In this document: piece after piece, positions 3,205 through 26,096 of the stretch
Layout of the letters: every line of letters starts with the position of its first letter
Numbering within the stretch: the first letter of the stretch is position 1
Source of the DNA: Actinomycetota bacterium
GTDB lineage: Bacteria > Actinomycetota > Acidimicrobiia > Acidimicrobiales > VFJN01
Length of the DNA: 40,323 nt
NCBI GenBank assembly: GCA_046734695.1
Contig: JBKPRS010000222.1
Span: 1-40,323, forward strand
Direction of reading: 5' to 3'
Program-made: the position numbers and the translations under genes
Notes under the pieces: model-generated
What the model was told of the DNA's origin: nothing
Seen by the model: only the letters and a program-made list of their open reading frames with translations
Databases searched by the model: none

Positions 3205-3317
3205 GGCGAGCCACACTGTGAGCACCGGATGACAAGTAAGGGCGGCCAGGTGTTCTCACCGCGACCAGCGACGCGCTCCCGCGTCGGCGCGAAGACAACG
3301 GCCCGGGCGGGCCAGGC

Positions 3318-5183: not shown

Positions 5184-5319
5184 GCGTGCCGCGCGAGAGC
5201 CGTGAAAACGCAATGTGTGTGGGCCGCCGGGCCGCAGCCGGCAGCCCTATTGTCCGTTCAGCTGGGAAGACTTGCCGATGATCCCGGCCCCCGACTCCAT
5301 GTCCCACCAAGAGGAAGCC

Positions 5320-8513: not shown

Positions 8514-8569
8514 CGGGCTGAAGGCGGGCAGGCGAACTTGGAAGCAGGACGAGAGGGCGGAGGCTGACG

Positions 8570-9889: not shown

Positions 9890-9953
9890 CGGGCCTTAAG
9901 CATACTGAATCATGCGATAGCATATGAATAAACACGGGCGGACAAAGGGGAAA
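9890..9953 (+). promoter_or_regulatory. Short AT-rich island with a direct repeat upstream of or overlapping the start of the giant secreted protein
   Basis: ttaAGCATACTGAATcatgcgatAGCATATGAATaaaca. The repeat AGCATA(C)TGAAT occurs at 9899-9910 and 9919-9929. The island is sharply AT-rich relative to its surroundings. An A/G-rich stretch AAAGGGG (9944-9950) precedes the alternative ATG at 9954. Confidence 0.35.
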
Positions 9954-12900
9954 ATGGTGGGCGGAGGCGCGCCGAAGTTGCGCGAGCATCGCCGCGGCAC
10001 GCGGTGGTTGATCCCGCTGGTCGCGAGCATCCTGTTGGTGGGTCCCGGAGTGGCGTCCGCGCCGCGCGCGTCGGCCGCACCACCAGGGAACTTCCAGACG
10101 TCGCTCGTCATCGGTGACGGGCTGGACGGGTCCTCGGGGTTCGAGATCGCCCCGGACGGCCGGATCTTCATCCTCGAACGGGCCGGGAAGATCAAGATCG
10201 TGAAGAACGGGCAACTGCTGCCCACTCCCTTCGCCGACCTGCCCTCCGAGGACACCGGTGACAGAGGGCTCATCGGGATCGCCTTCGACCCCGAGTTCGG
10301 GGTCGCGAACCACTTCGTCTACTTCTATTACACCGGCCACGACCTGCTGAACCACCTGGTCCGCTTCAGCGCGGACCAGGACGTGGCCCAGGAGGCGCCC
10401 CTCGAGCTGTTCCGGACCTCGTCGCCGTCCCAGCTCCTGCACGTCGGAGGCAGCATCCGCTTCGGACCCGACGGCAAGCTGTACTTCGCGGTCGGTGACA
10501 ACGGCCAGGGCGACAACGCCCAGGATCTGAGCAACCCCCACGGGAAGATCCTGCGCATCAACAAGGACGGCTCGATCCCGGCGGACAACCCCTTCGTGGG
10601 GCAGCCCGGCAAGCTGGGGGCCATCTGGGCGTACGGCTTCCGCAACCCGTGGCGCTTCCAGTTCGACGGCGCGACGGGCGAGCTGTATGGCGGCGACGTG
10701 GGCAACTTCAGCTGGGAGGAGGTCAACCACATCGTCAAGGGTGGCAACTACGGGTGGCCGCTGAACGAGGGCATGTGCACGGCGAACTGCGCCGGGTACA
10801 TCGACCCGATCCACACCTACCCCCACGACGGCAGCTCGGCCGCGGTCACCGGCGGGCCGGTCTACCGGGCAGGCATGTTCCCGCCCGAGTACCAGGGCGA
10901 CCTCTTCTTCGCCGACTACGCCCGGGGCTTCATCAAGCACGCCAACCTCGATGCCACCGGTCATGTCACGTCCGTCGAGGACTTCGACGACCAGGCGGGC
11001 AGCGTCGTCGACATGAAGATCGCGCCGGACGGCTCGATGTACTACATCACCTACTTCCCGGCTGCGCTCTATCGCGTCACCTTCAACACGACGTCCCACC
11101 TGCCGGTGGCCAACGCCTCGGCCGACGTCACCAAGGGCATCGAGCCGCTCACCGTGCACTTCTCCAGCGCCGGCAGCAGCGATCCCGACGGCGACCCGGT
11201 GAGCTACCACTGGGACCTCGGCGACGGGACGACCAGCACCGAGGCGAACCCGACGAAGACCTACCCGAACATCGGCGTCTACACGGCGCGGCTCACGGTG
11301 TCGGCGGCCGGGGACGAGGTGCCGGCGCAGCCCATCGTCGTCCAGGTCGGGGTGCCTCCCCAGCTCACCGTGGCTCTCCCCACCGAGGGCCAGCTGTACC
11401 GGGCGGGCGACACGATCAGCTACAACGCGTTCGCGTCCGACGCCGCCGGCTTCGACCTCGACGACGGCGACATCAAGACGTCGGTCAGGCTGCACCACGG
11501 CACGCACTTCCATCCCTTCGCCGGGCCGCTCACCGGCCGGGCCGGGTCGTTCACCATCCCCACCACGGGTGAAGCCTCGGCCGACACCTCCTACGAGGTC
11601 ACGGTGACCGCCACCGACGGCAACGGCCTGTCGGCCAGCAAGGTGGTCAACGTCTTCCCGCAGAAGTCCGAGATCAGCCTCGCCACCTCGCCGTCCGGGC
11701 TGGGCCTGTTCCTCGACAGCATCCCCGTGAGCACGCCGCACGAGGTCACGGGCGTCGAAGGCTTCCAGCGTGAGCTCTCCGCGCCGCTCTATGCCGTGGC
11801 CCATGACGGCACTCCGCTCCAGTTCGCCGGCTGGTCGGACGGCAAGCCGATCCGCCACACGATCACCACGCCGGTCGACGACGTCACGTACACGGCCAGC
11901 TACGAGGAGAGGCAGGCGTGGACGGCGACGTACTACGACAACATCACCTTCTCGGGCGCACCGGTGGTGACGCGCGAGGAGGAGGACCTCAGCTTCGACT
12001 GGGGGGGCGGCTCGCCCGATCCGGCGCTGCCCGGCAACCTCTTCTCGGCCCGCTGGACCAAGACCCAGAACTTCGCGGCCGGTCGCTACACCTTCACGAC
12101 CGTGGTCGACGACGGCGTCCGCCTGTACATCGACGGCAAACGGGTGATCAACCGGTGGTTCGGTGCGCCGAGCACGGCGTCCAGCTACACCGTGGACCTC
12201 GGCGTGGGCCTGCACACGATCAAGCTGGACTACGTCGAGATCTTCGGTGGCGCCAGCGTGTCGCTCGCCGTCGAGGCGGCCCATGAGCAGCCCGTCGGCA
12301 CCTACCGGGCGGAGTACTGGAACTGGTCGAGCATCAACGAGTTCCCCGCCACGAGCGCCGACATGTCGCGCGACGAGGCCGCGATCGACCACGACTGGGG
12401 ACCCGACTCGCCGGGCCCCGGCATCGGCACCGACCGCTTCCTCGCCCGCTGGACCCGCACGGCGAGCTTCACTCCGGGTGACTACCAGTTCTCGGTCACC
12501 GCGGACGACGGCGTGCGCCTCTTCGTCGACGGCGCCAAGGTCATCGACCGCTGGATCGACGAGGGGGCCACGACCTACACCGCGACGCTGCCGCTCGACG
12601 GCGCTCCTCACTCGATCGTGATGGAGTACTACGAGAGCGGCGGGGGAGCGGTCGCCCAGTTGGGCATCCAACGGGTCGGCGACCTGGTGCCCGAGACGCC
12701 CTACCACGCCACCTACTGGAACCTGCCGGACGGCGCGGACATCCCGCCGAGCATCCCGAGCGGCTCTCCGGACCTGGAGCGCGACGACGGGACCCTCGAC
12801 TTCGACTGGGACGACGGCTCGCCCGGCGCCCCCATCGGGTCGAACCGCTTCGTCGCCCGCTGGACCAAGACCGTGTCGTTGTCGGCGGGCCTCTACCGGT

Positions 12901-13895
12901 TCAGCGGCGTCCACGACGACGGCATGCGCGCCTACGTCGACGACGTGCCGGTCGTCAACGACTGGAGCGCGGGCAACACCTCCTTCAGCGTCGACAAGCA
13001 GATGACCGGCGGCACCCATCAGCTGCGGGTGGAGTACTTCGAGTCCGGCGGCGGCGCCAAGGCAGAGTTCACCTACGACCGGATCGGCCCGGTGGGGACG
13101 TCGGCGCCGTCCGACGGCGGGTACCAGGCCGAGTACTTCGCCAACACCGACCTGTCCGGCACACCGGTGCTGACCCGGCAGGACAGCGCCGTCGACTTCA
13201 ACTGGGCCGACGGCGCGCCGGGCGACGGCGTGCCCGCCAACAACTTCTCGGCCCGCTGGACCAAGTCCCTCGTCGTGACGGAGGACATCTCGTACGAGTT
13301 CACCGTCACGGTCGACGACGGCGCCCGCCTCTACGTCGACGGGGTCAAGGTGCTGGACAAGTGGTTCGGCCAGGGAGGCACGTCCACGTCCACGGTCACC
13401 GTGCACCTGGCTCCCGGCACGCACCCGGTCGTGCTCGAGTACCTCGAGCTGGGTGGCGGCGCCGTCGCCCGGTTCGGCTACGAGACCAGCGCCGAACCTC
13501 CGCCCGACCCGCCACCACCGTTCGCGGCGGAGTACTTCGACAACCCCGAGCTGACCGGCACGCCGGTGCTCGCGCGGGTGGACGCCGAGCTCGACTTCGA
13601 CTGGGGAGGCGGCTCTCCGGACCCCGCCGTGCCCACCAACAACTTCTCGGCCCGCTGGACGAGGACCGAGTCCTACACGGAGGGCACCTACCGGTTCAGC
13701 GTCACCGGTGACGATGGGATCCGGGTGCTGGTCGACGGCGTCCTCGTCGTGGACGGCTGGTTCTACCAGGCCCCGACCACTTACTCCGCCGACGTGCCAT
13801 TGACGGCGGGACTGCATACCGTGGTCATCGAGTACTTCGAGTTCGCCGGAGGAGCGGTGGCGTCGTTCACCGAGACGAAGGTCGCCGATGGCTAG
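9924..13895 (+). CDS. Large secreted multidomain protein: glucose/sorbosone-dehydrogenase-type (PQQ-dependent-like) beta-propeller + PKD + Ig-like modules + five PA14 domains
   Basis: 1323-aa ORF. The signal peptide is [25 protein letters not shown]. The SGDH-like region includes [58 protein letters not shown] and NYGWP. The PKD motif is [30 protein letters not shown]. It is followed by five repeats of the PA14 pattern Y.AEYF.N......P...R....IDFDWG.GSP......N.FSARWT......G.Y.F....DDG.RL.VDG. An alternative start is at 9954. Confidence 0.9.
11919..13880 (+). repeat. Five tandem PA14-domain coding repeats (about 384-420 nt each)
   Basis: The units begin near 11919 (WTATYYDN), 12303 (YRAEYWNW), 12702 (YHATYWNL), 13122 (YQAEYFAN) and 13521 (FAAEYFDN). 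They are diverged at both protein and DNA level, so the duplication is not recent. Confidence 0.75.
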
Positions 13896-14559
13896 CGACG
13901 ACATCATCAACATCTCGTTCCACGGTGTGGGAGATCCGCTCGGGCCGCCGCGCGAGCCGGGTGAGCACGACTACTGGATCGGCCGTGACGCCTTCCTCTC
14001 GCTCCTGGACGAGGTGCAGGGTCGGGACGACGTCCGGCTGAGCTTCGACGACGGCAACGCGTCGGACGTGGAGGTCGCGCTGCCCGCCCTCGTCGAGCGC
14101 GGCATGACGGCCGACTTCTTCGTGGTGGCCGGCCGGCTCGGGAGCCCGGGCAACGTGGACGCCGCGGGCCTGGGCGCGCTGCGAGCCGCCGGCATGGGCG
14201 TCGGCACCCACGGCATGGAGCACCGGTCGTGGCGAGGCCTCGACGACGACGAGCTCGAGGTCGAGCTGGTCGAGGCCCGGCAGGTCATCGCCGAGGCGGT
14301 CGGGACGGCGGTCACCGCCGCCGCCCTTCCCCTCGGGCAGTACGACCGCACGGTCCTGGCCGCGCTGCGCAGGCATGACTACGAGGTCGTGTACTCCAGC
14401 GATGCCCGTCGTGTGCGGGAAGGCGCGTGGTTCCAGCCGCGGTACTCCGTGCGCGCCGGCGACACGCCGCGTTCGGTGCGCGAGACGGTCCTTGCGCCGC
14501 CCCGCGCCCACGAGCGCCTCCGGGGCCACCTCGCGGGGATCGCCAAGCGGTGGCGTTGA
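13888..14559 (+). CDS. Polysaccharide deacetylase (NodB homology domain, CE4-like)
   Basis: 223-aa ORF overlapping the upstream stop by 8 nt. NodB motif 1 is RLSFDDGNASD, followed by MTADFFVVAGRLG and GTHGMEHRSW. Confidence 0.85.
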   Translation: MASDDIINISFHGVGDPLGPPREPGEHDYWIGRDAFLSLLDEVQGRDDVRLSFDDGNASDVEVALPALVERGMTADFFVVAGRLGSPGNVDAAGLGALRAAGMGVGTHGMEHRSWRGLDDDELEVELVEARQVIAEAVGTAVTAAALPLGQYDRTVLAALRRHDYEVVYSSDARRVREGAWFQPRYSVRAGDTPRSVRETVLAPPRAHERLRGHLAGIAKRWR

Positions 14560-15776: not shown

Positions 15777-16844
15777 CTAGCCGTTGCACGGCTCGTCGGC
15801 CACGACCCCGGTCACCTGGTAGTTGGCATCGATGGTGACCAGCTTGGCCTCCCAGCTCGGGTGCCTGGAGCAGTCCACTCCGTCCATCGGGCCGTACACC
15901 CAGGCGTGGTCCACGATTCGGAGCCCCGTCACGTTGCCCGGCACCTCGTGCCGGAACGTGTAGCCGCCACCGCTGACGAGTAGTCGGTCCACGGTATAGG
16001 TCCCGGTGTTGACGGCGGGGTCCACCACGAACCAGGGCGCCGTGCCGCACGAGGTCTCGAAGATGATCGTGTTGTTGCGGGCGGTCGCGCCCACGCCGTA
16101 CACCGCCTGCACCCCGTCCGAGTGGACGTCGTCGCACGCCGCCGTGCCTTCGTCGGCTCCGTGGATGCTGATGAAGGAGTTCTCCAGCGTGACAGGCCCG
16201 CAATCCGACAGGCGCGGCCCCTCGCCGCGCCCCAGCACCTCGATGTTCCGGGCGGTGTAGGACCCCTCACCGATCACCGGATAGTCGCCGGCTGTGAACC
16301 CGCCGGGCGCCTGCTTGAACGTGACGTTCTCGACCAGCATGTTGTGGCCGCACCCGGCGGGGGCATCCCCGAACTGGTTGGTGATGAACCCGCCGAGCAT
16401 CTCCACCCTGCGGATCGTCACGTTGTCGGCGAAGACGCTGATGCTCGCCCCGTCCGTGAAGCGGACGTCCTCGACGACCGTGCCGGGCTGGCGGATCTCC
16501 ATGTCGGTCGAGACCGTCTGCGCGGGCGTCCATCCCGCCGGCACGCCGGTGCTCGCGGGGTTGGGGAAGCCGCCGGGAGGCGGCGGAGTCGACGACGACT
16601 CGGGGGCGCCGGTCGTCTCGGGGGGCGCAGTCGTCGCAGAGGTCGGAGGAGGCTTGAGGGCGGGCGTGGCGGCGGGGGGAAGAGTCGTTCCCGAGTCCGC
16701 GCCGGCGGTCGCGGAACCCGCCGCCTCCACGAGGCGCGGGTCCGAGTCGCCGCCCCGGGTGGCCGCCACCGCGACCGCGGCGGCCACGACCACGACCGCC
16801 CCGACCAGGCCCAGGACGAGCTTGCGAGATCTGCCTACCGCCAT
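15777..16844 (-). CDS. Secreted or membrane-anchored right-handed beta-helix-like protein (candidate polysaccharide lyase/epimerase/hydrolase)
   Basis: The ORF track gives 15777..16925. I prefer the ATG at 16844 (MAVGRSRKLVLGLVGAVVVVAAAVAVAAT is a signal or anchor). A Pro/Thr/Ala linker follows, then repeated PbH1-like strands: NVTIRRVEMLGG, MLVENVTFKQ, YTARNIEVLG, VTLENSFISIHG and ATARNNTIIFE. The coding call is solid. The function is inferred. Confidence 0.75.
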   Translation of the reverse strand: MAVGRSRKLVLGLVGAVVVVAAAVAVAATRGGDSDPRLVEAAGSATAGADSGTTLPPAATPALKPPPTSATTAPPETTGAPESSSTPPPPGGFPNPASTGVPAGWTPAQTVSTDMEIRQPGTVVEDVRFTDGASISVFADNVTIRRVEMLGGFITNQFGDAPAGCGHNMLVENVTFKQAPGGFTAGDYPVIGEGSYTARNIEVLGRGEGPRLSDCGPVTLENSFISIHGADEGTAACDDVHSDGVQAVYGVGATARNNTIIFETSCGTAPWFVVDPAVNTGTYTVDRLLVSGGGYTFRHEVPGNVTGLRIVDHAWVYGPMDGVDCSRHPSWEAKLVTIDANYQVTGVVADEPCNG

Positions 16845-17064: not shown

Positions 17065-17334
17065 TCAGCCGAGCTGCTCGTCCACGAACGCGGCCAGGCT
17101 GCCGAGCGTCTCGAACACGTCCGCCGTCACCTCGTCGCCGTCGACCTCGATGGCGAAGCGCTCCTCGAGGGCGTAGATGAGCTCGACCACCGCCATCGAG
17201 TCGAGCTCGGGCAGGCTGCCGAGCAGTTCGGTGGCGGCGTCCATGGCGCCGGCGCGGGCTTCGTCGATGCCGAGCGTGGCGGACACGACGGAACGTACCG
17301 CGTCGAGCGTGGTGGGGGCGGTGCCGGTGTTCAT
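17065..17334 (-). CDS. Acyl/peptidyl carrier protein
   Basis: 89-aa reading frame at the 3' end of track ORF 17065..18165. It carries the phosphopantetheine attachment motif LGSLPELDSMAVVELI. Its ATG at 17334 overlaps the upstream stop (ATGA, 17331-17334). Confidence 0.85.
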   Translation of the reverse strand: MNTGTAPTTLDAVRSVVSATLGIDEARAGAMDAATELLGSLPELDSMAVVELIYALEERFAIEVDGDEVTADVFETLGSLAAFVDEQLG

Positions 17335-18575
17335 ACGAGGACCTCGGGAGGCGAAGGGTGGCTGAGGAAGGCGGTCGGGCTGGCGGTCAGCCCGTAGGCA
17401 CCGGCCTGGAAGACGACGACGAGGTCGCCGATCTCGGCCGGAGGCAGAGCGACGGAATCGGCCAGCAGGTCGAGCGGCGTGCACAGCACGCCGACCACGC
17501 TGGCGGTCTCGCGGCCTGCGCCCGCCTCCCCGCCCATGCGGGTCCCGAGCGCGACCGGGTAGTTCCGCCGGATCACCTGGCCGAAGTTGCCCGAGGCGGC
17601 GAGCTGGTGGTGCAGGCCGCCGTCGACGACGAGGAACACCTTGCCGCGCGACTCCTTGCGGTCGATCACCCGCGTGACGTAGACGCCGGCCTCGCCGACG
17701 ATGTAGCGCCCGAGCTCGAGGTTCAGGCGGGCGTCCGGCAGTCGGGGGCGCACGAGCTCGTCCAGCAGTCCAGCCAGGTTGGCGCCGATGGGCGCGATGT
17801 CCAGCGGCTGGTCCTTCTCGCCGTAGGGGATGCCGAAGCCACCGCCCACGTTGAGGTAGCGCACCGGGAGCGGGGAGTCCTCCGCCAGGGCCAGCGCCAG
17901 CTCGACCGTCTTGCGCTGGGTCTCGCAGAGGATGTCGGCCCGCAGGTTCTGCGATCCCGCGAAGATGTGGAAGCCGAGGAAGTCGACCTCCGCGACGGAC
18001 AGCTCCTTCAGCAGCGCGGGGACGCGCTCGGAGTCGACGCCGAACTGCTGGGGACCCCCGCCCATCCGCATGCCGGACCCCTTGACCTGGAAGTCGGGGT
18101 TCACCCGGACCGCCACCCGGGGCCGGATGCCGAGCTCGTCCCCGATGGCGGCGAGACGCTGCCACTCGGTCTCCGACTCCATCTCCACGGTCACGCCGGC
18201 GGCCACCGCCTGGGTCAGCTCGTCCGGACGCTTGCCCGGCCCGGCGAAGCTGATGCGCTCCTCCGGCATGGCGGTGTCGAGCGCGACGCGCAGCTCGCCG
18301 GCGGAGGCGACGTCGAACCCGTCGACAAGGCCCCGGAGATGGTGGACCACCGCGGGCATCGGGTTGGCCTTGATGGCATAGCTGAGGTCGATCCCGCCGG
18401 GCAGCAGCCGCCGGAGCTCGCCGACGCGCTCGGCGATCTTGGCCCGGTCGTAGGCGAAGAACGGCGTGCCGCCGACCCGCAGGGCCAAGCGGTCGATGGG
18501 GATCCCACCGACTGCCAGCACGCCGCCGTCGACCTCATAGCCGGCGATCGTGGGATGCACGCGAAGCTCGGTCAA
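17331..18575 (-). CDS. PLP-dependent decarboxylase, Orn/DAP/Arg decarboxylase family (fold type III)
   Basis: This is the 3' part of track ORF 17331..20039. It has the PLP-lysine motif LSYAIKANP, the phosphate-binding NVGGGFGIPY, and HIFAGSQ. A TTG start at 18575 overlaps the ligase stop (TTGA). An alternative GTG start is at 18560. Confidence 0.9.
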   Translation of the reverse strand: MTELRVHPTIAGYEVDGGVLAVGGIPIDRLALRVGGTPFFAYDRAKIAERVGELRRLLPGGIDLSYAIKANPMPAVVHHLRGLVDGFDVASAGELRVALDTAMPEERISFAGPGKRPDELTQAVAAGVTVEMESETEWQRLAAIGDELGIRPRVAVRVNPDFQVKGSGMRMGGGPQQFGVDSERVPALLKELSVAEVDFLGFHIFAGSQNLRADILCETQRKTVELALALAEDSPLPVRYLNVGGGFGIPYGEKDQPLDIAPIGANLAGLLDELVRPRLPDARLNLELGRYIVGEAGVYVTRVIDRKESRGKVFLVVDGGLHHQLAASGNFGQVIRRNYPVALGTRMGGEAGAGRETASVVGVLCTPLDLLADSVALPPAEIGDLVVVFQAGAYGLTASPTAFLSHPSPPEVLV

Positions 18576-20140
18576 GCCGTGAGCTCCTGGCGGAGCAGCG
18601 TGCGGTCGAACTTGCCGTTGGGTGAGCGGGGCAGCTCGGCGCGGACCACGATCTCGCGGGGCACCATGTACAGCGGCAGCTGTCCGCGGAGCTCGTCGAG
18701 CAGGGATGCGGCCTCGAACGCGGTGTCCGCCTTCGGGCTGACCACGAGCACCACGGCCTGGCCGAGGCGGTCGTCGTCCACGCCCAGGGCCACCGCGTCG
18801 CGGACGAGCCCGGTGCCGTAGGTGACCTCCTCGATCTCCGTCGGGGCGACCCGGTAGCCCGAGGTCTTGATCATGTCGTCCTTGCGGCCGACGAAGTAGA
18901 GGAAGCCCTCCTCGTCCCGCGTGACGATGTCCCCCGAGAACACCGCAGGCTCCGTGGTGCAGAGGCCGTCCTCGCGGTTGGGTGCGGGCCGGAAGCGCTC
19001 CGCCGTGCGCTCCGGATCGTTCCAGTAGCCCATCGCCACCAGCGCGCCGCGATGGACCAGCTCGCCCTCCTCGTTCGGATCGCAGAGCGAGCCGTCGTCC
19101 CGGACCACGAGGATCTCGGCGTCGGGGATCGCCTTGCCGATCGAGTCGGGCCGCCGGTCGACCTCGGCCGGGTCGAGGTAGGTGGAGCGGAACGCCTCGG
19201 TCAGGCCGTACATGAGGAACGGCGCGGCTCCGGGGAAGATGGCCCGCAGCCGATCGAGGGTGGCCCGGGGCATGCGTCCGCCGGTGTTGGCGAAGTAGCG
19301 CAGGGACGCGGAGGCCTGCGGGGTCCAGCGTTGCTCCGCGAGCTGGATCCACAACGGGGGCACGCATGTGAGCCCGGTCACCCCGTGCTTGGCGCACAGG
19401 CGGACCACATCGCCGGGCAGCAGGTAGTTCATGAGCACGACGTGCGCACCGGTGGAGAAGGCGGTCGTGAGCTGGCTGAAGCCGGCGTCGAAGCTGAGCG
19501 GCAGCGCCGCCAGGATCACGTCGTGGCAGTCGTTGCCCAGGTAGTGGCTGACGCTCTCGGCCCCCACGATGAGGTTGCGGTGCGAGAGGACGACGCCCTT
19601 GGGCCGCCCGGTGCTGCCCGACGTGTAGAGGATGGCCGCCATGTCGAGGTCGATCGCCCCGGCCTCGGCCGGCTCGGCACCCGACGAGGCCACCGTGGCC
19701 CAGTCGGTGATCTCGTAGCGGGCCCCGGGGCGGGCGGCTCGACCGTCGCCGACCAGGACGACCCGTTCGATCGTCTTGCACTCGGCGAGCTGGTCCTCGA
19801 GCTGGTCGAACCGGTCGGCCGAGGTGACCAGCACGCGAGCGCCGGAGTCGTCGATGATGTGGCCGACCTGGCGGGGCCGCAGCAGCGGGTTGACGGGGAC
19901 GAAGACGCCCCCGGCGATCGAGGTGCCGAACACGGAGACGACCGTCTCGACCCGCTTGTCCAGGTAGATGGCGACGCGGTGGCCGCGGCCGAGGCCGAGG
20001 CCCTGGAGCCCGGCGCCCAGGGCCGTGCAGCGCTGCCACAGCTCCCCGTAGGTGAGCGTGGTGGCCTTGAACGTCAGCGCCGGGCCGTCAGGGCGCCACG
20101 AAGCTGTCTCGGCGAGGATGTGGTGAAGTTGGCTGCGCAT
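18572..20140 (-). CDS. AMP-forming acyl-CoA/acyl-carrier-protein ligase (adenylate-forming ANL superfamily)
   Basis: 522 aa from the ATG at 20140 (MRSQLHHILAETASWRPDGPALTF). The core motifs are ILYTSGSTGRPKGV, GELVHRGALVAMGYW, SGDIVTRDEEGFLYFVGRKDDMIKTSGYRV and PRSPNGKFDR. Confidence 0.9.
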   Translation of the reverse strand: MRSQLHHILAETASWRPDGPALTFKATTLTYGELWQRCTALGAGLQGLGLGRGHRVAIYLDKRVETVVSVFGTSIAGGVFVPVNPLLRPRQVGHIIDDSGARVLVTSADRFDQLEDQLAECKTIERVVLVGDGRAARPGARYEITDWATVASSGAEPAEAGAIDLDMAAILYTSGSTGRPKGVVLSHRNLIVGAESVSHYLGNDCHDVILAALPLSFDAGFSQLTTAFSTGAHVVLMNYLLPGDVVRLCAKHGVTGLTCVPPLWIQLAEQRWTPQASASLRYFANTGGRMPRATLDRLRAIFPGAAPFLMYGLTEAFRSTYLDPAEVDRRPDSIGKAIPDAEILVVRDDGSLCDPNEEGELVHRGALVAMGYWNDPERTAERFRPAPNREDGLCTTEPAVFSGDIVTRDEEGFLYFVGRKDDMIKTSGYRVAPTEIEEVTYGTGLVRDAVALGVDDDRLGQAVVLVVSPKADTAFEAASLLDELRGQLPLYMVPREIVVRAELPRSPNGKFDRTLLRQELTA

Positions 20141-20209
20141 GTGCCTGCTCGTGCGGGGGCCGGGGACCCCTCCGCCGGATCCCGGTCGGGGAACAGTCTT
20201 GCCGACCAG

Positions 20210-20250
20210 GCTGAAGTGGCGCTGAGGGGCGCCTGAAGTCAGCCTAAAGC
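20210..20250 (-). promoter_or_regulatory. Phased YTCAG direct-repeat array D (three units) plus an A/T element
   Basis: The plus strand reads GCTGAAGtggcGCTGAGgggcgcCTGAAGtcaGCCTAAAGC. CTGA cores sit at 20211, 20222 and 20233 (spacing 11, 11). The array lies in the divergent gap between the ligase operon (start 20140) and the GNAT gene (start 20310). Confidence 0.5.
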
Positions 20251-20309
20251 CCCGCCTCCGGGCAACGCCGAGTGGACAGGGCGTGAGTGGGAGGCAACAC
20301 AATGGGCGG

Positions 20310-21173
20310 ATGGCCGTGCGCGTGCAACCCATCAGCGACGACGACCTCGCCCGCGTGGCCGAGTTCTTCCACACCCACCTCAACCAGCGCGTGCCGGCAG
20401 CCGCGTGGGTCGCGGCCTTCACGCCGCCTTGGACCTTCGAGCAGCCCAACCATGGCTTCATGCTGCTCGACGACGCCGGGGCGGTCATCGGGGCCTACGC
20501 CGCGCTGTACTCCGAACGCACGCTCGCGGACCGGCAGGAGAGGATCTGCAACCTGGCGGCGTGGTGCGTGCGCGAGGACCAGCGGTTCCACAGTCTCCGG
20601 CTGCTCAAGGCGCTGCTCGCCCAGGAGGGCTACACGTTCACGGACCTCTCGCCCAGCGGGAACGTCGTGCCGCTCAACGCCCGCCTCGGCTTCACCGAGC
20701 TCGACCCCACCACGGTGCTCGTGCCCACGCTGCCCTGGCCGCCACGGCGCGGCGTCCGGGTGAGCTCGGATCCCGACGCCGTGAGCGCGGCGCTCTCCGG
20801 CGGCCAGCGGGACCTGTACCGGGACCACGCCGGCCTGGCGGGCGCCCGCCACGCCATCCTGGTCGAGGGCGACCGGTCGTGCTGGGTAGTGTTCCGCATG
20901 GATCGGCGCAAGCAACTGCCGCCGGTGTTCGCCTCCATCCTCCATGTCAGCGACCGGGACCTCTTCCGCCGGCGGATCCGCTCCGTCGCCAGCCACCTCC
21001 TGGTTCACCACCGGGCCGCCGCCCTGCTGATCGAACACCGGGTGACCGGCCCGCTCGCGGTATGGCCCCGGTTCACGGTGGGGGCGCCGAGGCGGAAGAT
21101 GGTCCTGAGCTCGACGATGCCCGCCGACCAGGTGGACTACTTCTACTCCGAGCTCATGTGCCTGTCGTGGTAG
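20310..21173 (+). CDS. GNAT-fold acyltransferase-like protein (two-lobed, ~287 aa)
   Basis: The track ORF is 20283..21173. I prefer the ATG at 20310 (MAVRVQPISDDDLARVAEFF). The N-terminal half is GNAT-like: GFMLLDDAGAVIGAYAALYSER...ICNLAAWCVREDQRFHSLRLLKALL...ARLGF. Its 3' end overlaps the convergent GT2 gene by 20 nt. Confidence 0.7.
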   Translation: MAVRVQPISDDDLARVAEFFHTHLNQRVPAAAWVAAFTPPWTFEQPNHGFMLLDDAGAVIGAYAALYSERTLADRQERICNLAAWCVREDQRFHSLRLLKALLAQEGYTFTDLSPSGNVVPLNARLGFTELDPTTVLVPTLPWPPRRGVRVSSDPDAVSAALSGGQRDLYRDHAGLAGARHAILVEGDRSCWVVFRMDRRKQLPPVFASILHVSDRDLFRRRIRSVASHLLVHHRAAALLIEHRVTGPLAVWPRFTVGAPRRKMVLSSTMPADQVDYFYSELMCLSW

Positions 21174-22203
21174 CGGGCCGGAGCCCGGCGAGCGCCCGGA
21201 CCTCCCGGTAGCGCTTCAGCACGCGCAGGAAGTGCTCGTGTCGGGCCGTGGCCTCCTGGCGGCGCTCGTCGTTGCGCGTCGTCGAGGCCACGGCCCAGAA
21301 ACCGGCCGCCCGGCTGGCGGCATGGGCCCACAGCAGGCCCGACATCGCCCAGCCCGCGAGATGCCCGTCGTGGTGGTCGGCGTAGCGGACCAGCCCGGCC
21401 ATGCCGAGGAGGTCCCGCCGCTCGCTGAGCTTGCGCCCGGCCACGCCGTCGAGATGGATGATGTCGCCCACCGGGGCGAAGCGCAGGACCCAGCCTCGGT
21501 CGCGCATCCTGCGGCACCAGTCCGCTTCCTCGCCGCAGAAGAAGTATCCGTCGTCGAGCAGCCCGACATCGTCGACCAGCTCCCGGCGCGTCGCCAGGTA
21601 GCAGCCCGTCACCACCTCGACGTCGCGCTCGCTGTCGCGGTGCCAGTGCGTCATGCGCTCCCGGCCGAGGAAGCGGGGCCACGGCAGCTTGGCCAGCCCG
21701 GTCAGGCCCAGGAAGGTGTTCAGGACGGACGGGTCGCGGAAGCACGAGGGCTGCAGGCTGCCGTCGGCGTTGAGGACCCGGCAGCCCAGCGTCCCGACGT
21801 CCGGATGCTCGTCGAGATAGCGGACCGTGGCGGCCAGCACGTCGTCGAGCACGATCGTGTCCGGGTTGAGGAGGAGGACGTAGCGACCCGTCGCCAGCTC
21901 GAGCCCCGCATTGCAGCCCGCGGCGAACCCGAGGTTCTCGGGGTTGCGGACGAGCCGCGCGTCAGGGAAGCGCTCCGCCACCATGTCGGCCGAGCCGTCG
22001 CCGGAGGCGTTGTCGACCACGACCAGCTCCGCCGAGATGCCCCGCACCCCGGCCACCACCGACTCCAGGCAGGCCTGGAGCTCGTCGCAGGTGTTCCAGC
22101 TGACGAGGATCACCGACAAGTCGGGGGACGACCACCGGGCCGCGCCGGGGGATGGCGCGGCCGCCGGTACGCGGGCGGATCGCACCGAGCTCGGTGGCGT
22201 CAT
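21154..22203 (-). CDS. Glycosyltransferase family 2
   Basis: 349 aa from the ATG at 22203, which overlaps the upstream stop (ATGA, 22200-22203). Motifs are LSVILVSWNTCDELQACLESV, VVVDNASGDGSADMV, NLGFAAGCNAGL and LLLNPDTIV. Confidence 0.9.
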   Translation of the reverse strand: MTPPSSVRSARVPAAAPSPGAARWSSPDLSVILVSWNTCDELQACLESVVAGVRGISAELVVVDNASGDGSADMVAERFPDARLVRNPENLGFAAGCNAGLELATGRYVLLLNPDTIVLDDVLAATVRYLDEHPDVGTLGCRVLNADGSLQPSCFRDPSVLNTFLGLTGLAKLPWPRFLGRERMTHWHRDSERDVEVVTGCYLATRRELVDDVGLLDDGYFFCGEEADWCRRMRDRGWVLRFAPVGDIIHLDGVAGRKLSERRDLLGMAGLVRYADHHDGHLAGWAMSGLLWAHAASRAAGFWAVASTTRNDERRQEATARHEHFLRVLKRYREVRALAGLRPATTTGT

Positions 22204-23843
22204 GGGCCCACTTCGGCGGTATGCCGCAGGGCCGCTGAGGGATCGGCCGGCGTCGGGGCGGTCGACGCCGACCGTCGCAGGGCGCTTAGGCCCCGGCGAA
22301 GGATGGCGGGCACGGTGTCGATCATGACTGCGATGTCCATCGCCACCGACCAGTTGTCCACGTAGAAGAGATCGAGCCGCCGGTACTCGTCGAACGAGGC
22401 CTTGTGGTTGGCCTCGACCTGCCACAGGCCGGTGAGCCCGGGCTTGACGATGTGCCGCCGCTTCAGCTCGTCGTCGAACTCGGCGATCTCCGACGGGAGG
22501 GCGGGGCGAGGCCCGACGATGCTCATGCGCCCGGTGAGCACGTTGATCAGCTGGGGCAGCTCGTCGATCGCGGTGGCGCGGAGCACGCTGCCGATCGGCG
22601 TGATCCGGGGATCGCTCGACACCTTGAACAGCGGGCCGTGGCGCTCGTTGCGATGACGCAGCTCGGAGAGCCGAGCCTCGGCGTCGACCTCCATCGTGCG
22701 CATCTTGACCAGCGTGAACGGCTCCCCGTCGCGGCCGATGCGGATCTGGCGGAACAGCACCGGCCCCCGGTCGTTCAGCTTGATCAGCAGGGCGGCCACC
22801 GCCATGACCGGAGCGGTCAGCACCAGGAGCAGCGCGGCCATCACGATGTCGAGCGCCCGCTTGACGGCGAGCTGCGTCCTCGAGTGGTGGGGCGGGCGCA
22901 CCAGCGAGAAGGGCTCGTGGGCCAGCGGTATCGTCTGGAGGCGGGCGCCGGAGACGCCGGTGAGGCCCGTGGACAGGTAGACGGCGGTGCCGGACGCGCT
23001 CAGCTCGACGACGAGCTGGTTCAGCGTGGGGCTTCCCAGCCCGTTCACCGCCACGAGGACCCCCGCAGCGCCGGTGCGGCGCACGACGTCGCCGGCGTGC
23101 TCGAGGCCGCCCAGGAACGGCGCGCTCACGGCGACGGTGCCGCTCGGCACGGGACGATCGCCGACGATCCCTATGGCGTCGAAGCCGGCCTCGGGGTTGA
23201 GCTCCAGGAACTCGACGAGCGCGGCGGCCTCGGCGGCCTCCCCGGCGACCACGACGGCGACCCGGAAGTCACCGCGTGCCCGCCTGCTCACGAGCCACAC
23301 GTCGAAGCAGTAACGGGCCGATGTGGCGACCACCAGCGACGCTGCCAGCGACGTCAGCACGAGCACCGGGGCCGTGTCACCCAGCAGCGCCTGCCCGGCG
23401 AGGGTGGCGAGCCCCGACAGGCCCAGGCTCAACAGCACGCGGCCGAGGGCGCCGGAGCGCACGCCGCTGAGCGGATGACGGTAGAGGTCGAGGGCTGAGA
23501 AGCAGAGGAGAGAGGAGACCACGCCGAGCGCGATCGTGGCGAGGACGGCGCCGGCACCCCAGGGGAGGTCCCGGCCCGCGCCCGCGAGGGCCCAGCCCAG
23601 CGACCACCCGAGGAGCAGGGACACGGCGTCGACGACGAGGAGCTGGCGACCGGGCGCGACGGGCACCCGCGCGGTCGTGTGCTCGGGCCGGTCTGCGCCG
23701 GCCGGGGCGAGGTCCGGGCCGCCCGCCGTCAGCGTCGCGGACGCCAAAGCGACGTGTGTGGCATGTCCCCGGGCGGGTATGGCCCGCGGCTCGTCCCGTT
23801 CGTGAAGGAGAAGCAATCTCGACTCTCGTGTACCGCCGCCCAT
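22200..23843 (-). CDS. Polyprenyl-phosphate glycosyl-1-phosphate transferase (WbaP/EpsB-type priming sugar transferase)
   Basis: 547-aa ORF with N-terminal TM helices and a central Rossmann-like region. The bacterial sugar transferase domain reads KRALDIVMAALLLVLTAPVMAVAALLIKLNDRGPVLFRQIRIGRDGEPFTLVKMRTM...DELPQLINVLTGRMSIVGPRP...KPGLTGLWQV. Confidence 0.9.
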   Translation of the reverse strand: MGGGTRESRLLLLHERDEPRAIPARGHATHVALASATLTAGGPDLAPAGADRPEHTTARVPVAPGRQLLVVDAVSLLLGWSLGWALAGAGRDLPWGAGAVLATIALGVVSSLLCFSALDLYRHPLSGVRSGALGRVLLSLGLSGLATLAGQALLGDTAPVLVLTSLAASLVVATSARYCFDVWLVSRRARGDFRVAVVVAGEAAEAAALVEFLELNPEAGFDAIGIVGDRPVPSGTVAVSAPFLGGLEHAGDVVRRTGAAGVLVAVNGLGSPTLNQLVVELSASGTAVYLSTGLTGVSGARLQTIPLAHEPFSLVRPPHHSRTQLAVKRALDIVMAALLLVLTAPVMAVAALLIKLNDRGPVLFRQIRIGRDGEPFTLVKMRTMEVDAEARLSELRHRNERHGPLFKVSSDPRITPIGSVLRATAIDELPQLINVLTGRMSIVGPRPALPSEIAEFDDELKRRHIVKPGLTGLWQVEANHKASFDEYRRLDLFYVDNWSVAMDIAVMIDTVPAILRRGLSALRRSASTAPTPADPSAALRHTAEVGP

Positions 23844-23889
23844 GTCCGCCCTTCCGCCCTTGCCTCGTGTCCGACTGTCGCAACCAGGT

Positions 23890-23929
23890 CTGAAGTGCTG
23901 CTGAAGCCGTGCTGAGGGTTGCCTTAACC
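23890..23929 (-). promoter_or_regulatory. Phased YTCAG direct-repeat array B (three units) plus an A/T element
   Basis: The plus strand reads CTGAAGtgctgCTGAAGccgtgCTGAGggttGCCTTAACC. CTGA cores sit at 23890, 23901 and 23912 (spacing 11, 11). The array lies 47 nt upstream of the priming-transferase ATG (23843). Confidence 0.5.
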
Positions 23930-23974
23930 GTGGCCGCCCCCGGAGTGGAGCCGGCCGGGCCCGCGGCCGCGCGC

Positions 23975-23996
23975 GAGCACCGACGGTGCCGTGCTC
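23975..23996 (-). terminator. Candidate stem-loop downstream of the response regulator gene (no U-tract)
   Basis: GAGCAC(23975-23980) pairs with GTGCTC(23991-23996). An alternative is GCACC-gac-GGTGC at 23977-23989. It lies 22-43 nt past the TAG at 24018-24020. The evidence is weak. Confidence 0.25.
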
Positions 23997-24017
23997 CGTC
24001 TGCGAGCCCGTTCCGCG

Positions 24018-24824
24018 CTAGATCAGCGCGAGCGAGCGCCGCCGCAGCGGCCGGAAGGCGCTGCTGTGCCGCGCCTCGCACCGGCTCCGGCGGTGTGCCC
24101 TGGTCCTCGCCGGCTTGGCCGCAGGCTCGACGCCCTCGACCGGCCGCAGTGCATAGCCCGCGCCGCGCACGGTGTGGATGATCCGGGGACCGGCACTCTC
24201 GAGCTTGCGCCGCAGCGCCGAGACGTGCACCTCGACCAGGTTCACCTTGTGCTGGTCGAAGCCCCACACCATGGTGAGGAGCTGGGTCTTCGACAGGACC
24301 TGGCTGCGGTGCCGGGAGAAGGTCGCCAGCAGGGCGAACTCGATGGCGGTCAGCTCGACGGGCGTACCGGCCCGCTCGACCGTGTGCGCCGCCTCGTCGA
24401 TCACGAGGTCACCCAGCTCGATGACCGGGGAGCTCGACCCGTTCCGCCGGGTCAGCGCGGTCACCTTGCAGGCAAGCTCGGACAGGACGAACGGCTTCGC
24501 CATCACCTCGTCGGCGCCAGCCCGCAACGCGACGAGCCGGTCCTCGAGCTGCGTCGCCGCACTGAGCACCACGAGAGGGATGTCGGTCACGATCCGGATC
24601 CGGTCGACGACCGGCCGTTCGTCCACACCTTCGCTCTCGGCGTCGATCACCAGCAGCTGCGGTCGCAGCTCCGGGAGCAGCCGTTCGGCCGAGCGCCACG
24701 ACGCCGTGCGCTCGACCACATGATTGTCATTTCGCAGAGTGTGCACGATTGCTTCTGCGAGAAACTCGTCCCCGCTTATCACGAGAACGCGCGCGCCATT
24801 AGCGCCTTGTCCGCCCGTTGACAT
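24018..24824 (-). CDS. OmpR/PhoB-family winged-helix response regulator (orphan, with no adjacent histidine kinase)
   Basis: 268-aa ORF. The receiver has RVLVISGDEF, the phospho-Asp context QLLVIDAESEG, VVLSA and MAKPF. The winged-helix region reads LGDLVIDEAAHTVERAGTPVELTAIEFALLATFSRHRSQVLSKTQLL...VEVHVSALRRKLE...IHTVRGAGYALR. A ~40-aa basic tail follows. Confidence 0.9.
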   Translation of the reverse strand: MSTGGQGANGARVLVISGDEFLAEAIVHTLRNDNHVVERTASWRSAERLLPELRPQLLVIDAESEGVDERPVVDRIRIVTDIPLVVLSAATQLEDRLVALRAGADEVMAKPFVLSELACKVTALTRRNGSSSPVIELGDLVIDEAAHTVERAGTPVELTAIEFALLATFSRHRSQVLSKTQLLTMVWGFDQHKVNLVEVHVSALRRKLESAGPRIIHTVRGAGYALRPVEGVEPAAKPARTRAHRRSRCEARHSSAFRPLRRRSLALI

Positions 24825-24886
24825 TGACCCGCCCTTCTAAAGCAAACGGTGTACCGCCGTTCGCAGGTGTCCCAACCAGCCCATGC

Positions 24887-25084: not shown

Positions 25085-26005
25085 TCAGTCGGAGAACACC
25101 CTGGCGTGGGCGGCCCGCCGGACGTCCAGGGGCGTGTACGACTTCGCCGAGATCATGTACGCGACGTCATGCGAGCCCGCCGACGCGATCATCTCCGCCG
25201 CGCTGTCCACGGTGAGCGGGTCGCTGCCCCAATACGTGTGGCACTGCGAGTCAGATGTGGTGACCAGACCCTTGGCTTGCTCCATCTCGTCCGCGTACAC
25301 GCCGTACAGCATGCATTCGGAGAAATGCAGCTCCCTGCCCACCGCCGCCAGCCAGTCGCGCCCGGTCACCTCCTCGACTCGGGCCAGCATCCGGCCGACG
25401 ACCTCGCGGTCCCAGCTGTTGAGTGCGGTGACGTAGTCGGGCAGGGGAGGTGGCGGGGCGGCCGGCAGTCCGAGGAGCCGGCGCGAGACCGAGTGCCAGA
25501 GCACGTGGCGCGTGAGCGAGCTGTCGACGCCGTCGTCCAACCGGAACAGCCTCACGTGCCCCCCCGGAGCGAACGTCTCCTCCGTCACCGGGCGGATGAA
25601 CACGATGTCCGAGTCGGCGGTGACGACCACTCGCTCGGCTACCTGAGAGGCGACCGCCAGCTTGACCAGCTGCTGGACGATCCACCCCCGGAGGGGAGGG
25701 AGCGGCCGTCGCACGTTCAGCCACAGCTTGGTCCACGGCAGGGCCCGCACGGAGCCCGGCAGCACGTCGCGGACCCCGAGCACCTCGCAGCGCGGTCCGG
25801 CGAACCGGCGGAAGGGCGCCACGTCCGGCTGGGTGACGATGACCAGGTGGCGCACGTCCTCGGGGAAGCATCGCAGCACCGACGCGTGGAGGTCGGTGAA
25901 CAGCTCCAGGTCGGGGGCGTACGTCGGCGTGACGACGACCATCCCCCCGCCGGCGTCCTCCGAGCGGCCCGTGGTGATGCGGGATTCGGCGCGCTCTGCA
26001 GCCAT
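25085..26005 (-). CDS. Hypothetical protein, possible nucleotide-diphospho-sugar-transferase-like enzyme
   Basis: 306-aa ORF with a non-repetitive, enzyme-like composition: MVVVTPTYAPDLELF..., LRGWIVQQLVKLAVA, VVVTADSDIVFIRP. The GW..QQ..KL segment reminds me of uncharacterised DUF-type proteins in polysaccharide loci, but the family assignment is unverified. An alternative ATG is at 25942. Confidence 0.7.
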   Translation of the reverse strand: MAAERAESRITTGRSEDAGGGMVVVTPTYAPDLELFTDLHASVLRCFPEDVRHLVIVTQPDVAPFRRFAGPRCEVLGVRDVLPGSVRALPWTKLWLNVRRPLPPLRGWIVQQLVKLAVASQVAERVVVTADSDIVFIRPVTEETFAPGGHVRLFRLDDGVDSSLTRHVLWHSVSRRLLGLPAAPPPPLPDYVTALNSWDREVVGRMLARVEEVTGRDWLAAVGRELHFSECMLYGVYADEMEQAKGLVTTSDSQCHTYWGSDPLTVDSAAEMIASAGSHDVAYMISAKSYTPLDVRRAAHARVFSD

Positions 26006-26050
26006 CGACGCCGACCCTAACCCGCCTCGGGATCCGTGCCCGTTCCCGGC

Positions 26051-26096
26051 CTCAGGCTTCAGTGACGCCTCAGGTTTGCCTCAGGTGGCCTTCAGC
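26051..26096 (+). promoter_or_regulatory. Phased YTCAG direct-repeat array C (five units)
   Basis: CTCAGgCTTCAGtgacgcCTCAGgtttgcCTCAGgtggccTTCAGC. TCAG cores sit at 26052, 26059, 26070, 26081 and 26092 (spacing 7, 11, 11, 11). The array is flanked by CCCTAACCC (26015-26023) and by the inverted repeat GTCCGC/GCGGAC (26097-26117). It lies in the divergent gap between the 25085..26005 gene and the dehydrogenase gene. Confidence 0.55.

Follow-up and report, generated by a model that had tools for sequence, protein, structure and literature searches.

The window analysed here is a stretch of 40,323 nt (contig JBKPRS010000222.1, assembly GCA_046734695.1) from an Actinomycetota bacterium. We examined in it three genes encoding an adenylating ligase, a pyridoxal phosphate (PLP) decarboxylase and a stand-alone carrier protein (together, the trio), along with a divergent gene whose product is predicted to fold as a tandem GCN5-related N-acetyltransferase (GNAT) and a deacetylase gene in the same polysaccharide locus. 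The features, each with its evidence, are as follows:

20140..18572, minus strand: adenylating ligase of the ANL superfamily, 522 amino acids (aa); TIGR03098, Pfam AMP-binding and AMP-binding_C, PDB matches.
18575..17331, minus strand: fold-III PLP decarboxylase, 414 aa, TTG start; TIGR03099, BtrK nearest in PDB.
17334..17065, minus strand: stand-alone carrier protein, 89 aa, ATG start; PP-binding, phosphopantetheine attachment Ser in LDSM.
20310..21173, plus strand: divergent protein with a predicted tandem GNAT fold, 287 aa; AlphaFold2, Foldseek and neighbourhood.
20141..20309, no strand: 169-bp intergenic region separating the ligase operon from the GNAT gene, where both promoters presumably lie; sequence inspected.
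13888..14559, plus strand: NodB-like polysaccharide deacetylase, 223 aa; Pfam Polysacc_deac_1, 67 bits.

The original prediction, made without database searches, described three translationally coupled genes for an ANL ligase with its core motifs, a PLP enzyme of the ornithine/diaminopimelate (DAP) decarboxylase family, and an 89-aa carrier with its serine in DSM; all of this stands at the coordinates above. The TTG start of the decarboxylase gene and the TGA stop of the ligase gene share TTGA, and the ATG start of the carrier gene and the TGA stop of the decarboxylase gene share ATGA. The motifs are in place in the ligase (YTSGSTGRPKG, YGLTE and GKFDR; Pfam AMP-binding 284 bits, AMP-binding_C 44 bits), in the decarboxylase (AIKANP and GGGFGIPY; Orn_Arg_deC_N 119 bits, Orn_DAP_Arg_deC 62 bits) and in the carrier (LDSM; PP-binding 27.7 bits, cutoff 20.8). 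The GNAT gene was called as an open reading frame at 20283..21173 (plus strand), and its true start is probably the ATG at 20310, because all homologues begin with MAV(R/S)V. The divergent GNAT/ligase arrangement is also present in the two closest relatives. A pattern scan and Rfam found no sigma-70-like promoter, terminator pattern or Rfam match in the intergenic region.

The ligase scores 760.4 bits against the curated hidden Markov model (HMM) TIGR03098 (ligase_PEP_1; cutoff 592.35), with residues 5-519 aligned to profile positions 2-517, and the decarboxylase scores 584.2 bits against TIGR03099 (dCO2ase_PEP1; cutoff 478.45). The trio had been assigned to 'exosortase A system-associated' families, and the HMM comparison places it there. 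Both are hypothetical-equivalog models with thousands of members, annotated for years merely by that association. Actinobacterial membership is not new: NCBI already gives the name 'exosortase A system-associated' to orthologues in Micromonospora and Phytohabitans that are 72-75% identical. Literature searches found no paper characterising the ligase/decarboxylase/carrier trio or establishing its chemistry, in agreement with what the first reading had supposed.

Among solved structures, the best matches of the ligase are amino-acid adenylation enzymes, ranking above acyl-CoA ligases: the second (Gly) A domain of LgrA (278 bits), VinN (3wvn, 222 bits) and SlgN1 (179 bits), with the acyl-CoA ligases in the PDB match list at no more than 184 bits and DltA structures at 124-129 bits. 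VinN binds 3-methyl-Asp and Asp as beta-amino acids, activating the side-chain carboxyl; its D230 holds the amino group, and GrsA has smaller residues at the positions of F231 and S299 (PMC11253843). The VinN sequence was rebuilt from the PDB search alignment and then aligned directly to the window ligase. The two are 35% identical, align without gaps through the pocket, and have an equally short beta13-beta14 loop. The pocket residues correspond thus (VinN, then window ligase):

D230 corresponds to D218.
F231 corresponds to A219.
S299 corresponds to T286.
K330 corresponds to F317.
R331 corresponds to R318.

Six residues (D218, N285, M310, F317, R318 and K510) do not vary across 64 family ligases from many phyla. 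All 64 have Thr or Ser at position 286; at position 219, 32 have Tyr and 31 have Ala, as does the window ligase. The Asp equivalent to D218 binds the substrate amino group in adenylation domains (PMC11253843). Because these pocket residues do not vary, the whole ligase family probably shares one substrate class, and its signature appears closest to the Asp type. The differences from VinN at K330 and F231 may affect the chain length that the ligase accepts.

The nearest solved relative of the decarboxylase is BtrK, the L-glutamyl-[BtrI ACP] decarboxylase (ACP, acyl carrier protein), at 247 bits and 37% identity, followed by SbnH (6knh; 166 bits, 31%) and the DAP decarboxylases (at most 158 bits; 25% identity to E. 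coli LysA). The active-site motif reads CTPLD, as against CTPED in BtrK, CTPKD in SbnH and CESGD in E. coli LysA. More than 8000 homologues were found at E <1e-20, the best named relatives being in Micromonosporaceae (~73% identity). All 50 diverse representatives aligned with the window decarboxylase also match TIGR03099 (E <1e-100), and across them the PLP lysine (in AIKANP), His203, the GGG phosphate loop, Glu287, Cys365, Asp369 and Tyr394 are invariant or nearly so. In a simple neighbour-joining tree, the neighbours of the family are BtrK and Streptomyces decarboxylases; one of the latter (L083) adjoins a VinN-like ligase that scores 383 bits against VinN. From these relationships we predict that the decarboxylase acts on a carrier-tethered amino acid.

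Further domains are fused to some decarboxylases of this kind. Three TIGR03099-like decarboxylases (P0358, which is WP_229156797 from Aestuariibacter/Fluctibacter halophilus, P0383 and P0374) carry a C-terminal Sulfotransfer_3 domain (Pfam); this fusion hints at a sulfation step tied to the pathway in some marine Gammaproteobacteria. Another, P0354, has a 2OG-Fe(II) oxygenase fragment at its N-terminus.

These scores bear on the possibility that the genes serve ordinary metabolism, the PLP enzyme being a DAP decarboxylase for lysine (or one forming Lys-S-ACP from tethered DAP) or the ligase a fatty acyl-CoA ligase. Database labels lean that way: JGI pipelines call homologues 'diaminopimelate decarboxylase', the NCBIfam name is 'acyl-CoA ligase (AMP-forming)', and models for long-chain fatty-acid-CoA ligases score up to 314 bits. 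However, all of those models have cutoffs of at least 476 bits, the lysA model TIGR01048 stops at 230.5 bits (cutoff 297.9), CESGD is lost, the amino-group-binding Asp218 is invariant, and the genes are coupled to a dedicated carrier inside a glycan locus. Neither the HMM scores nor the context place the trio in fatty-acid or lysine metabolism, and we regard such a role as very improbable.

None of the named ACP and DltC models gives the carrier a score above cutoff; its Asp-Ser is conserved in 90% or more of the 44 homologues aligned. Its best PDB match is 2lki (70 bits), which we take to be the structural-genomics ACP NE2163 of Nitrosomonas europaea; ordinary ACPs reach at most 27 bits. The trio had been likened to DltA/DltC, with alanine racemase as a PLP enzyme that feeds Dlt and the Acyl_transf_3 membrane protein encoded at 8522..9889 as a possible trans-membrane transferase. 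Read so, D-alanine or another simple amino acid would be loaded on the carrier, the PLP enzyme would be a racemase, and Acyl_transf_3 would move the group across the membrane and esterify the glycan outside. The pairing of a ligase with a small carrier is indeed the DltA/DltC pattern, and the PLP enzyme has a weak Ala_racemase_N match (24 bits). Yet the parallel proves superficial: the carrier scores 23.5 and 17.3 bits on the DltC models (cutoffs 68 and 52), the ligase is far closer to VinN than to DltA, the PLP enzyme has a decarboxylase C-terminal domain and its best match in BtrK, domain scans found no MBOAT/DltB or DltD among the window genes, the Acyl_transf_3 gene occurs in none of 13 related loci that share the GNAT gene, and the conserved partner is a cytoplasmic GNAT. 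A Dlt-like pathway is therefore scarcely credible here, and the racemase and Acyl_transf_3 roles fall with it.

We compared 84 related loci by BLAST and a GNAT-family HMM, and ran NCBIfam on one reference operon. The ligase and decarboxylase genes are adjacent in about 64 of them, spanning Actinobacteria, Alpha-, Beta-, Gamma- and Deltaproteobacteria, Planctomycetota and Acidobacteriota (six or more phyla in all); carrier homologues occur in 47. A search of 1.84 billion cluster representatives yielded natural fusions of ligase to decarboxylase (P0299, P0332 and P0334, the P0332 cluster having three members, among them one from a Polyangiaceae metagenome-assembled genome (MAG)), of decarboxylase to ligase (P0342), and of decarboxylase to a PP-binding domain (P0340, Vallitalea pronyensis). 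Precedent is found in pathways where Glu or Asp is joined to an ACP through the side-chain carboxyl by BtrJ, CtaD, FlvN or VinN, after which BtrK, CtaF, FlvO or VinO removes the alpha-carboxyl on the carrier, giving thioesters of the 4-aminobutanoate (GABA) or beta-alanine type (PMC11350588, PMC11284099, PMC7857480). The translational coupling, adjacency, fusions and published precedent together suggest that ligase, decarboxylase and carrier act together, and the fusions, with BtrK as nearest solved relative, support decarboxylation on the carrier.

The same on-carrier logic could run with L-glutamate activated at its gamma-carboxyl, so that a 4-aminobutanoyl (GABA-type) group would be transferred. 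BtrK, which heads the decarboxylase matches, acts on gamma-L-glutamyl-S-BtrI, and the pocket departs from VinN where Lys and Phe give way to Phe and Ala. On the other hand, the ANL ligases that load ACPs in this chemistry, VinN and FlvN, take Asp-type substrates, and the loop length and Arg of VinN are kept. BtrJ, the known Glu-loading enzyme, is an ATP-grasp ligase. A free 4-aminobutanoyl thioester can also cyclise to a lactam, and the module has no second ligase; butirosin biosynthesis reportedly employs a protecting gamma-glutamyl group, to judge from the title of a 2005 paper by Li et al. as cited elsewhere. We hold glutamate to be possible, if unlikely, as the substrate.

The divergent protein had been described as two-lobed and GNAT-like. 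This is upheld by the predicted structure and not by sequence models: for the protein and two orthologues there is no Pfam or NCBIfam family up to E=5, and the protein has no PDB sequence match; the lone sequence trace is Acetyltransf_9 (E=0.17) in one orthologue. All 1455 homologues are named 'hypothetical' by NCBI. AlphaFold2, given a 36-sequence alignment, returned a model with a predicted local distance difference test score (pLDDT) of 87.3 and a predicted template-modelling score (pTM) of 0.82, and Foldseek against the PDB gave 2ozg (E 5e-10, TM 0.61), MAB_4324, Eis2, N-myristoyltransferase and VipF (E 5e-10 to 1e-7). A tandem GNAT fold is thus supported by modelling. A suggested link to FemAB is not borne out, the protein lying outside the PEP-CTERM FemAB family and having no NCBIfam match at the same limit. 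Neither a signal peptide nor a membrane segment was found in the protein, so any transfer it performs is predicted to be cytoplasmic. Read by eye, its lobes lack the usual R/Q-x-x-G-x-G/A loop for the pyrophosphate of coenzyme A (CoA), with R92-F-H-S-L-R instead. The GNAT gene adjoins the ligase gene in 13 related loci. From this neighbourhood and the fold, we take the tandem GNAT as the candidate transferase that would draw the aminoacyl group off the carrier. In Flexivirga alba (L024), two GNAT paralogues (7546..8394 and 12195..13280; 377 and 325 bits against the family HMM) flank the ligase-decarboxylase-ACP genes.

Two locus architectures were distinguished. In the proteobacterial type, an ACP-hydrolase 2-hydrolase 1 unit (TIGR03101 and TIGR03100 for the hydrolases) lies near the ligase-decarboxylase pair; hydrolase 1 occurs in 28 loci and hydrolase 2 in 20, all proteobacterial. 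In the GNAT type, the order is GNAT, ligase, decarboxylase, ACP, without hydrolases; the window has none, and neither have 12 of the 13 GNAT-type loci. This type is found in the window, Phytohabitans, Micromonospora, two Actinoplanes, Nocardioides, Flexivirga, a Solirubrobacterales MAG, and two metagenomic relatives (88% and 82% identity between their decarboxylases and that of the window). It is also found in a MAG labelled Mesorhizobium sp. (L009) and a Planctomycetota MAG (L072), with decarboxylases 67-69% identical; these reflect either real horizontal transfer or mis-binned contigs, given that the binning of MAGs can go wrong.

The GNAT and the hydrolase pair are almost mutually exclusive, which suggests that they do analogous jobs on the carrier-bound product. 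Just one locus has both, that of Zoogloea sp. LCSB751 (L025, 573..11218), in the order ACP, fused E1 alpha/beta, E2-like, hydrolase 2, hydrolase 1, GNAT homologue (32% identity), a 416-aa protein, ligase, decarboxylase. This is a canonical exosortase-A-type operon, and its E1 alpha/beta 2-oxoacid dehydrogenase-like protein (663 aa) and E2-like lipoyl/acyltransferase protein (395 aa) are the sole case in the 84 loci. The neighbour-joining tree groups the GNAT-type loci in a single clade nested among proteobacterial members, with Kiloniellaceae and Stellaceae as its neighbours; this nesting suggests that the GNAT type arose by one transfer together with a swap of the off-loading enzyme.

All inspected GNAT-type neighbourhoods have Wzx or Wzy, glycosyltransferases or a priming transferase. 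The NodB-like deacetylase has no N-terminal signal or membrane segment. Of the 13 GNAT-type loci, 10 have a deacetylase gene no more than 10 kb away, and the 28 hydrolase-type loci have none. Where DNA was compared, homologues of 41-53% identity were counted; for two loci known from their gene tables, the count rests on a Pfam Polysacc_deac_1 gene. The two closest relatives have the gene directly after that of the carrier. In Phytohabitans, two DegT-type sugar aminotransferases adjoin the module. Either the deacetylase or the aminotransferases would supply a free sugar amine in the cytoplasm, as would be expected if a nucleotide- or lipid-linked amino sugar were N-acylated ahead of its export by Wzx. 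The probable part of the deacetylase is thus that of an accessory exposing the sugar amine for acylation.

We propose, with a probability of roughly 55%, that the ligase loads Asp (less likely Glu), that the decarboxylase converts it on the carrier, and that the GNAT transfers the product to a sugar amine of the nascent glycan: (i) The ligase, as homology suggests, would adenylate the side-chain carboxyl of an acidic amino acid (most likely L-aspartate), and the activated amino acid would be thioesterified to the phosphopantetheine arm of the 89-aa carrier. (ii) The PLP decarboxylase would then strip the free alpha-carboxyl on the carrier, giving beta-alanyl-S-ACP (or 4-aminobutanoyl-S-ACP from Glu). 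(iii) In the weakest of the steps, the cytoplasmic tandem GNAT would move the aminoacyl group to the amine of a nucleotide- or undecaprenyl-linked sugar intermediate, an amine probably exposed by the cytoplasmic NodB-like deacetylase, in a deacetylate-then-reacylate order like that of NodB and NodA with NodF; transfer would precede the flipping of the repeat unit by Wzx. The polysaccharide would thereby gain a free primary amine and with it a positive charge. Such a pathway would follow the enzymatic logic of VinN/VinL/VinO, FlvN/FlvL/FlvO and BtrJ/BtrI/BtrK, in the setting of a glycan and not of an antibiotic. For steps (i) and (ii) we draw on homology, pocket residues, fusions and precedent, and for step (iii) on fold and neighbourhood only. 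The amino-acid-derived decoration of a surface glycan that was first envisaged is still the best reading.

Several points weigh against this proposal. The Lys of VinN at 330 is replaced by an invariant Phe in the ligase family, the window ligase has Ala at position 231 and not the bulky residue of VinN, the ligase scores higher against a Gly-activating domain of a nonribosomal peptide synthetase (NRPS) than against VinN, and BtrK takes Glu rather than Asp. In Amycolatopsis sp. CM201R (L007, 9908..13658), a decarboxylase 70% identical to that of the window has no ligase, ACP or GNAT gene within 10 kb; an 818-aa regulator-like protein is encoded after it, and its upstream 10 kb hold no confident genes under a filter on third-position G+C (GC3). 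An assembly gap was considered as the cause of the missing ligase and rejected, the locus having no N runs. The Phytohabitans, Zoogloea and planctomycete loci have no deacetylase, and GNAT and deacetylase occur together only within a single clade, which means that the counted loci do not represent independent events. Acetyl-CoA, and not the ACP, could be the donor for the GNAT, which might for example N-acetylate the aminoacyl-ACP as a protecting group. Finally, a literature search, itself crude, found no report of natural glycans with beta-alanyl or 4-aminobutanoyl groups.

In another reading, the aminoacyl-carrier is made as proposed, but the acceptor is a small molecule, a lipid, peptidoglycan or a protein, or the GNAT merely N-acetylates the carrier-bound intermediate and another enzyme performs the transfer. 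The glycan acceptor is deduced from the neighbourhood, GNATs normally use acyl-CoA, two alpha/beta hydrolases replace the GNAT in proteobacterial loci, and related decarboxylases (L081-L084) sit in secondary-metabolite contexts. Yet each of the GNAT-type loci inspected is a polysaccharide locus, domain scans of the window found no polyketide synthase (PKS), NRPS or lipid genes, and neither GNAT lobe shows an evident CoA-pyrophosphate loop. We judge these alternatives distinctly unlikely, and continue to favour transfer to a sugar amine by the GNAT.

Pfam scans show that the polysaccharide locus spans positions 1 to ~30.8 kb of the window, beyond which lie the housekeeping genes gatB and ilvD and a MatE transporter gene. 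Window G+C is 71%, and the called genes have GC3 of ~0.9, as real genes there should show. The locus includes an epimerase, several GT2/GT1/GT4 glycosyltransferases and WecG, along with Wzx (3240..5183), Wzy (6324..8513) and the Acyl_transf_3 protein; also present are a Bac_transf priming transferase, a response regulator, a UDP-glucose dehydrogenase, the deacetylase, and a large secreted protein. The last (9921..13895, plus strand), in mid-locus, has ~1300 aa with a glucose/sorbosone dehydrogenase (GSDH) beta-propeller, PKD and five PA14 domains; the deacetylase gene, starting at 13888, overlaps its end by 8 nt, and in two related loci (L001 and L003) large Big_5/DUF4082 surface proteins are encoded at similar positions. 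The description of a Wzx/Wzy locus with no visible exosortase is confirmed: no exosortase Pfam domain was found in the ~30 window genes scanned, and no PEP-CTERM-like or LPXTG tails among the window proteins. A search for regulatory RNAs and tRNAs found neither an Rfam match nor a tRNA in the window.

Some neighbouring genes deserve mention. A 355-aa protein is encoded 139 bp downstream of the carrier gene (15777..16844, minus strand), with an N-terminal membrane anchor, a Pro/Thr-rich linker, and a C-terminal part modelled by AlphaFold2 as a right-handed beta-helix (pLDDT 81.8). No Pfam family covers it. Among its 118 homologues are proteins with TSP3 repeats, and in L003, L008 and L044 homologues that are 38-44% identical are encoded near the module. 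Foldseek gave weak matches (E 0.04-0.4) to capsule depolymerases, pectate/alginate lyases and AlgG. As a membrane-anchored beta-helix with weak lyase/depolymerase similarity, it was rejected as an extracytoplasmic transferase; it is probably a glycan-processing enzyme outside the acyl-transfer chemistry. Two genes on the plus strand (1059..2126 and 5206..6366) have high GC3 and look conserved, without a Pfam or NCBIfam family; the product of the second has a faint match to the Wzz chain-length determinant (E 0.13) and is 25% identical to a protein of L003. A DUF6492 protein is encoded at 25085..26080 (minus strand). At 22200..24836 (minus strand), an OmpR-type response regulator adjoins the Bac_transf priming transferase, an arrangement shared with the two closest relatives, and the window showed no histidine kinase.

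The link to the established VinN/VinO/BtrK logic gives a common and opaque annotation a specific, checkable chemistry. If the proposal is true, the module is a widespread route to a free amine on surface polysaccharides, bearing on the biofilm or floc matrix, charge-based resistance and immunogenicity, and is independent of exosortase; it would also explain what the unannotated tandem-GNAT family and the hydrolase-1/2 pair do, as two alternative means of off-loading the carrier. A bolder idea, which we think improbable and draw by analogy with sortase and the lipid II amine, is that the cassette installs a primary-amine handle (beta-alanyl or 4-aminobutanoyl) on the exopolysaccharide; in Gram-negatives this would be the long-sought nucleophile to which exosortase A attaches PEP-CTERM proteins, and Actinobacteria would have borrowed the cassette, a tandem GNAT taking over from the hydrolase pair, for a cationic or zwitterionic glycan. 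If true, this would account both for the association of the genes with exosortase A in Proteobacteria and for their working here in its absence.

Compared with known systems, the module shares with DltA/DltC an ANL ligase plus a small carrier, and a likely positive charge on a cell-surface polymer in both; it differs in having no DltB/DltD, a carrier that fails the DltC models, a ligase distant from DltA, and an added decarboxylase and cytoplasmic GNAT. The likeness to NodB/NodA/NodF is one of logic, with sequence relation limited to the NodB domain. There, a cytoplasmic PF01522 deacetylase frees a sugar amine for N-acylation, with a dedicated acyl carrier protein as the donor. NodA does not belong to the GNATs, and the Nod acyl group is a fatty acid built by NodE/NodF. 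From BtrI/BtrJ/BtrK, which make the butirosin side chain, the module has its nearest solved decarboxylase, sharing CTPxD, and in both the product ends on the amine of a sugar or sugar-like acceptor, as we propose for the module. The butirosin transferase BtrH is not a GNAT, and the gamma-glutamyl protecting group and the hydroxylation of butirosin have no counterpart in the module.

The macrolactam starter-unit cassettes VinN/VinL/VinO (vicenistatin) and FlvN/FlvL/FlvO (fluvirucin B2) are like the module in combining an ANL ligase, a stand-alone ACP and a PLP decarboxylase. They load an Asp-type amino acid on the ACP via its side-chain carboxyl, and the PLP decarboxylase acts on the ACP-bound form (PMC11284099, PMC11350588). 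VinN and the window ligase have D230, S299 (as Thr), R331 and the short beta13-beta14 loop in common, and the nearest outgroup of the decarboxylase family is the Streptomyces decarboxylases, including the one beside a VinN-like ligase. The differences are in context (a Wzx/Wzy polysaccharide locus, not a PKS cluster), in the pocket (K330 to Phe, F231 to Ala), in the off-loading candidate (the tandem GNAT), and in the lack of a VinM-type second aminoacylating ligase, a VinK-type acyltransferase and a VinJ amidohydrolase, so that no protecting-group cycle is expected.

The module also resembles the exosortase A-associated set of proteobacterial PEP-CTERM exopolysaccharide loci (TIGR03098-TIGR03101): the ligase and decarboxylase pass the curated HMM cutoffs, the ACP is of the same subfamily, the ligase-then-decarboxylase order is kept, and the Zoogloea operon even has a GNAT homologue. 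In the window, however, hydrolases 1 and 2, an exosortase and PEP-CTERM tails are lacking, the ACP follows the decarboxylase and does not flank hydrolases, and the tandem GNAT and NodB-like deacetylase are the conserved partners. Actinomycetes were reported to have no PEP-CTERM, in a study where the trio genes are not mentioned (Haft 2006). The best explanation is that the module needs no exosortase, and that the actinobacterial version is an architectural variant with a tandem GNAT in place of the hydrolase-1/hydrolase-2 pair.

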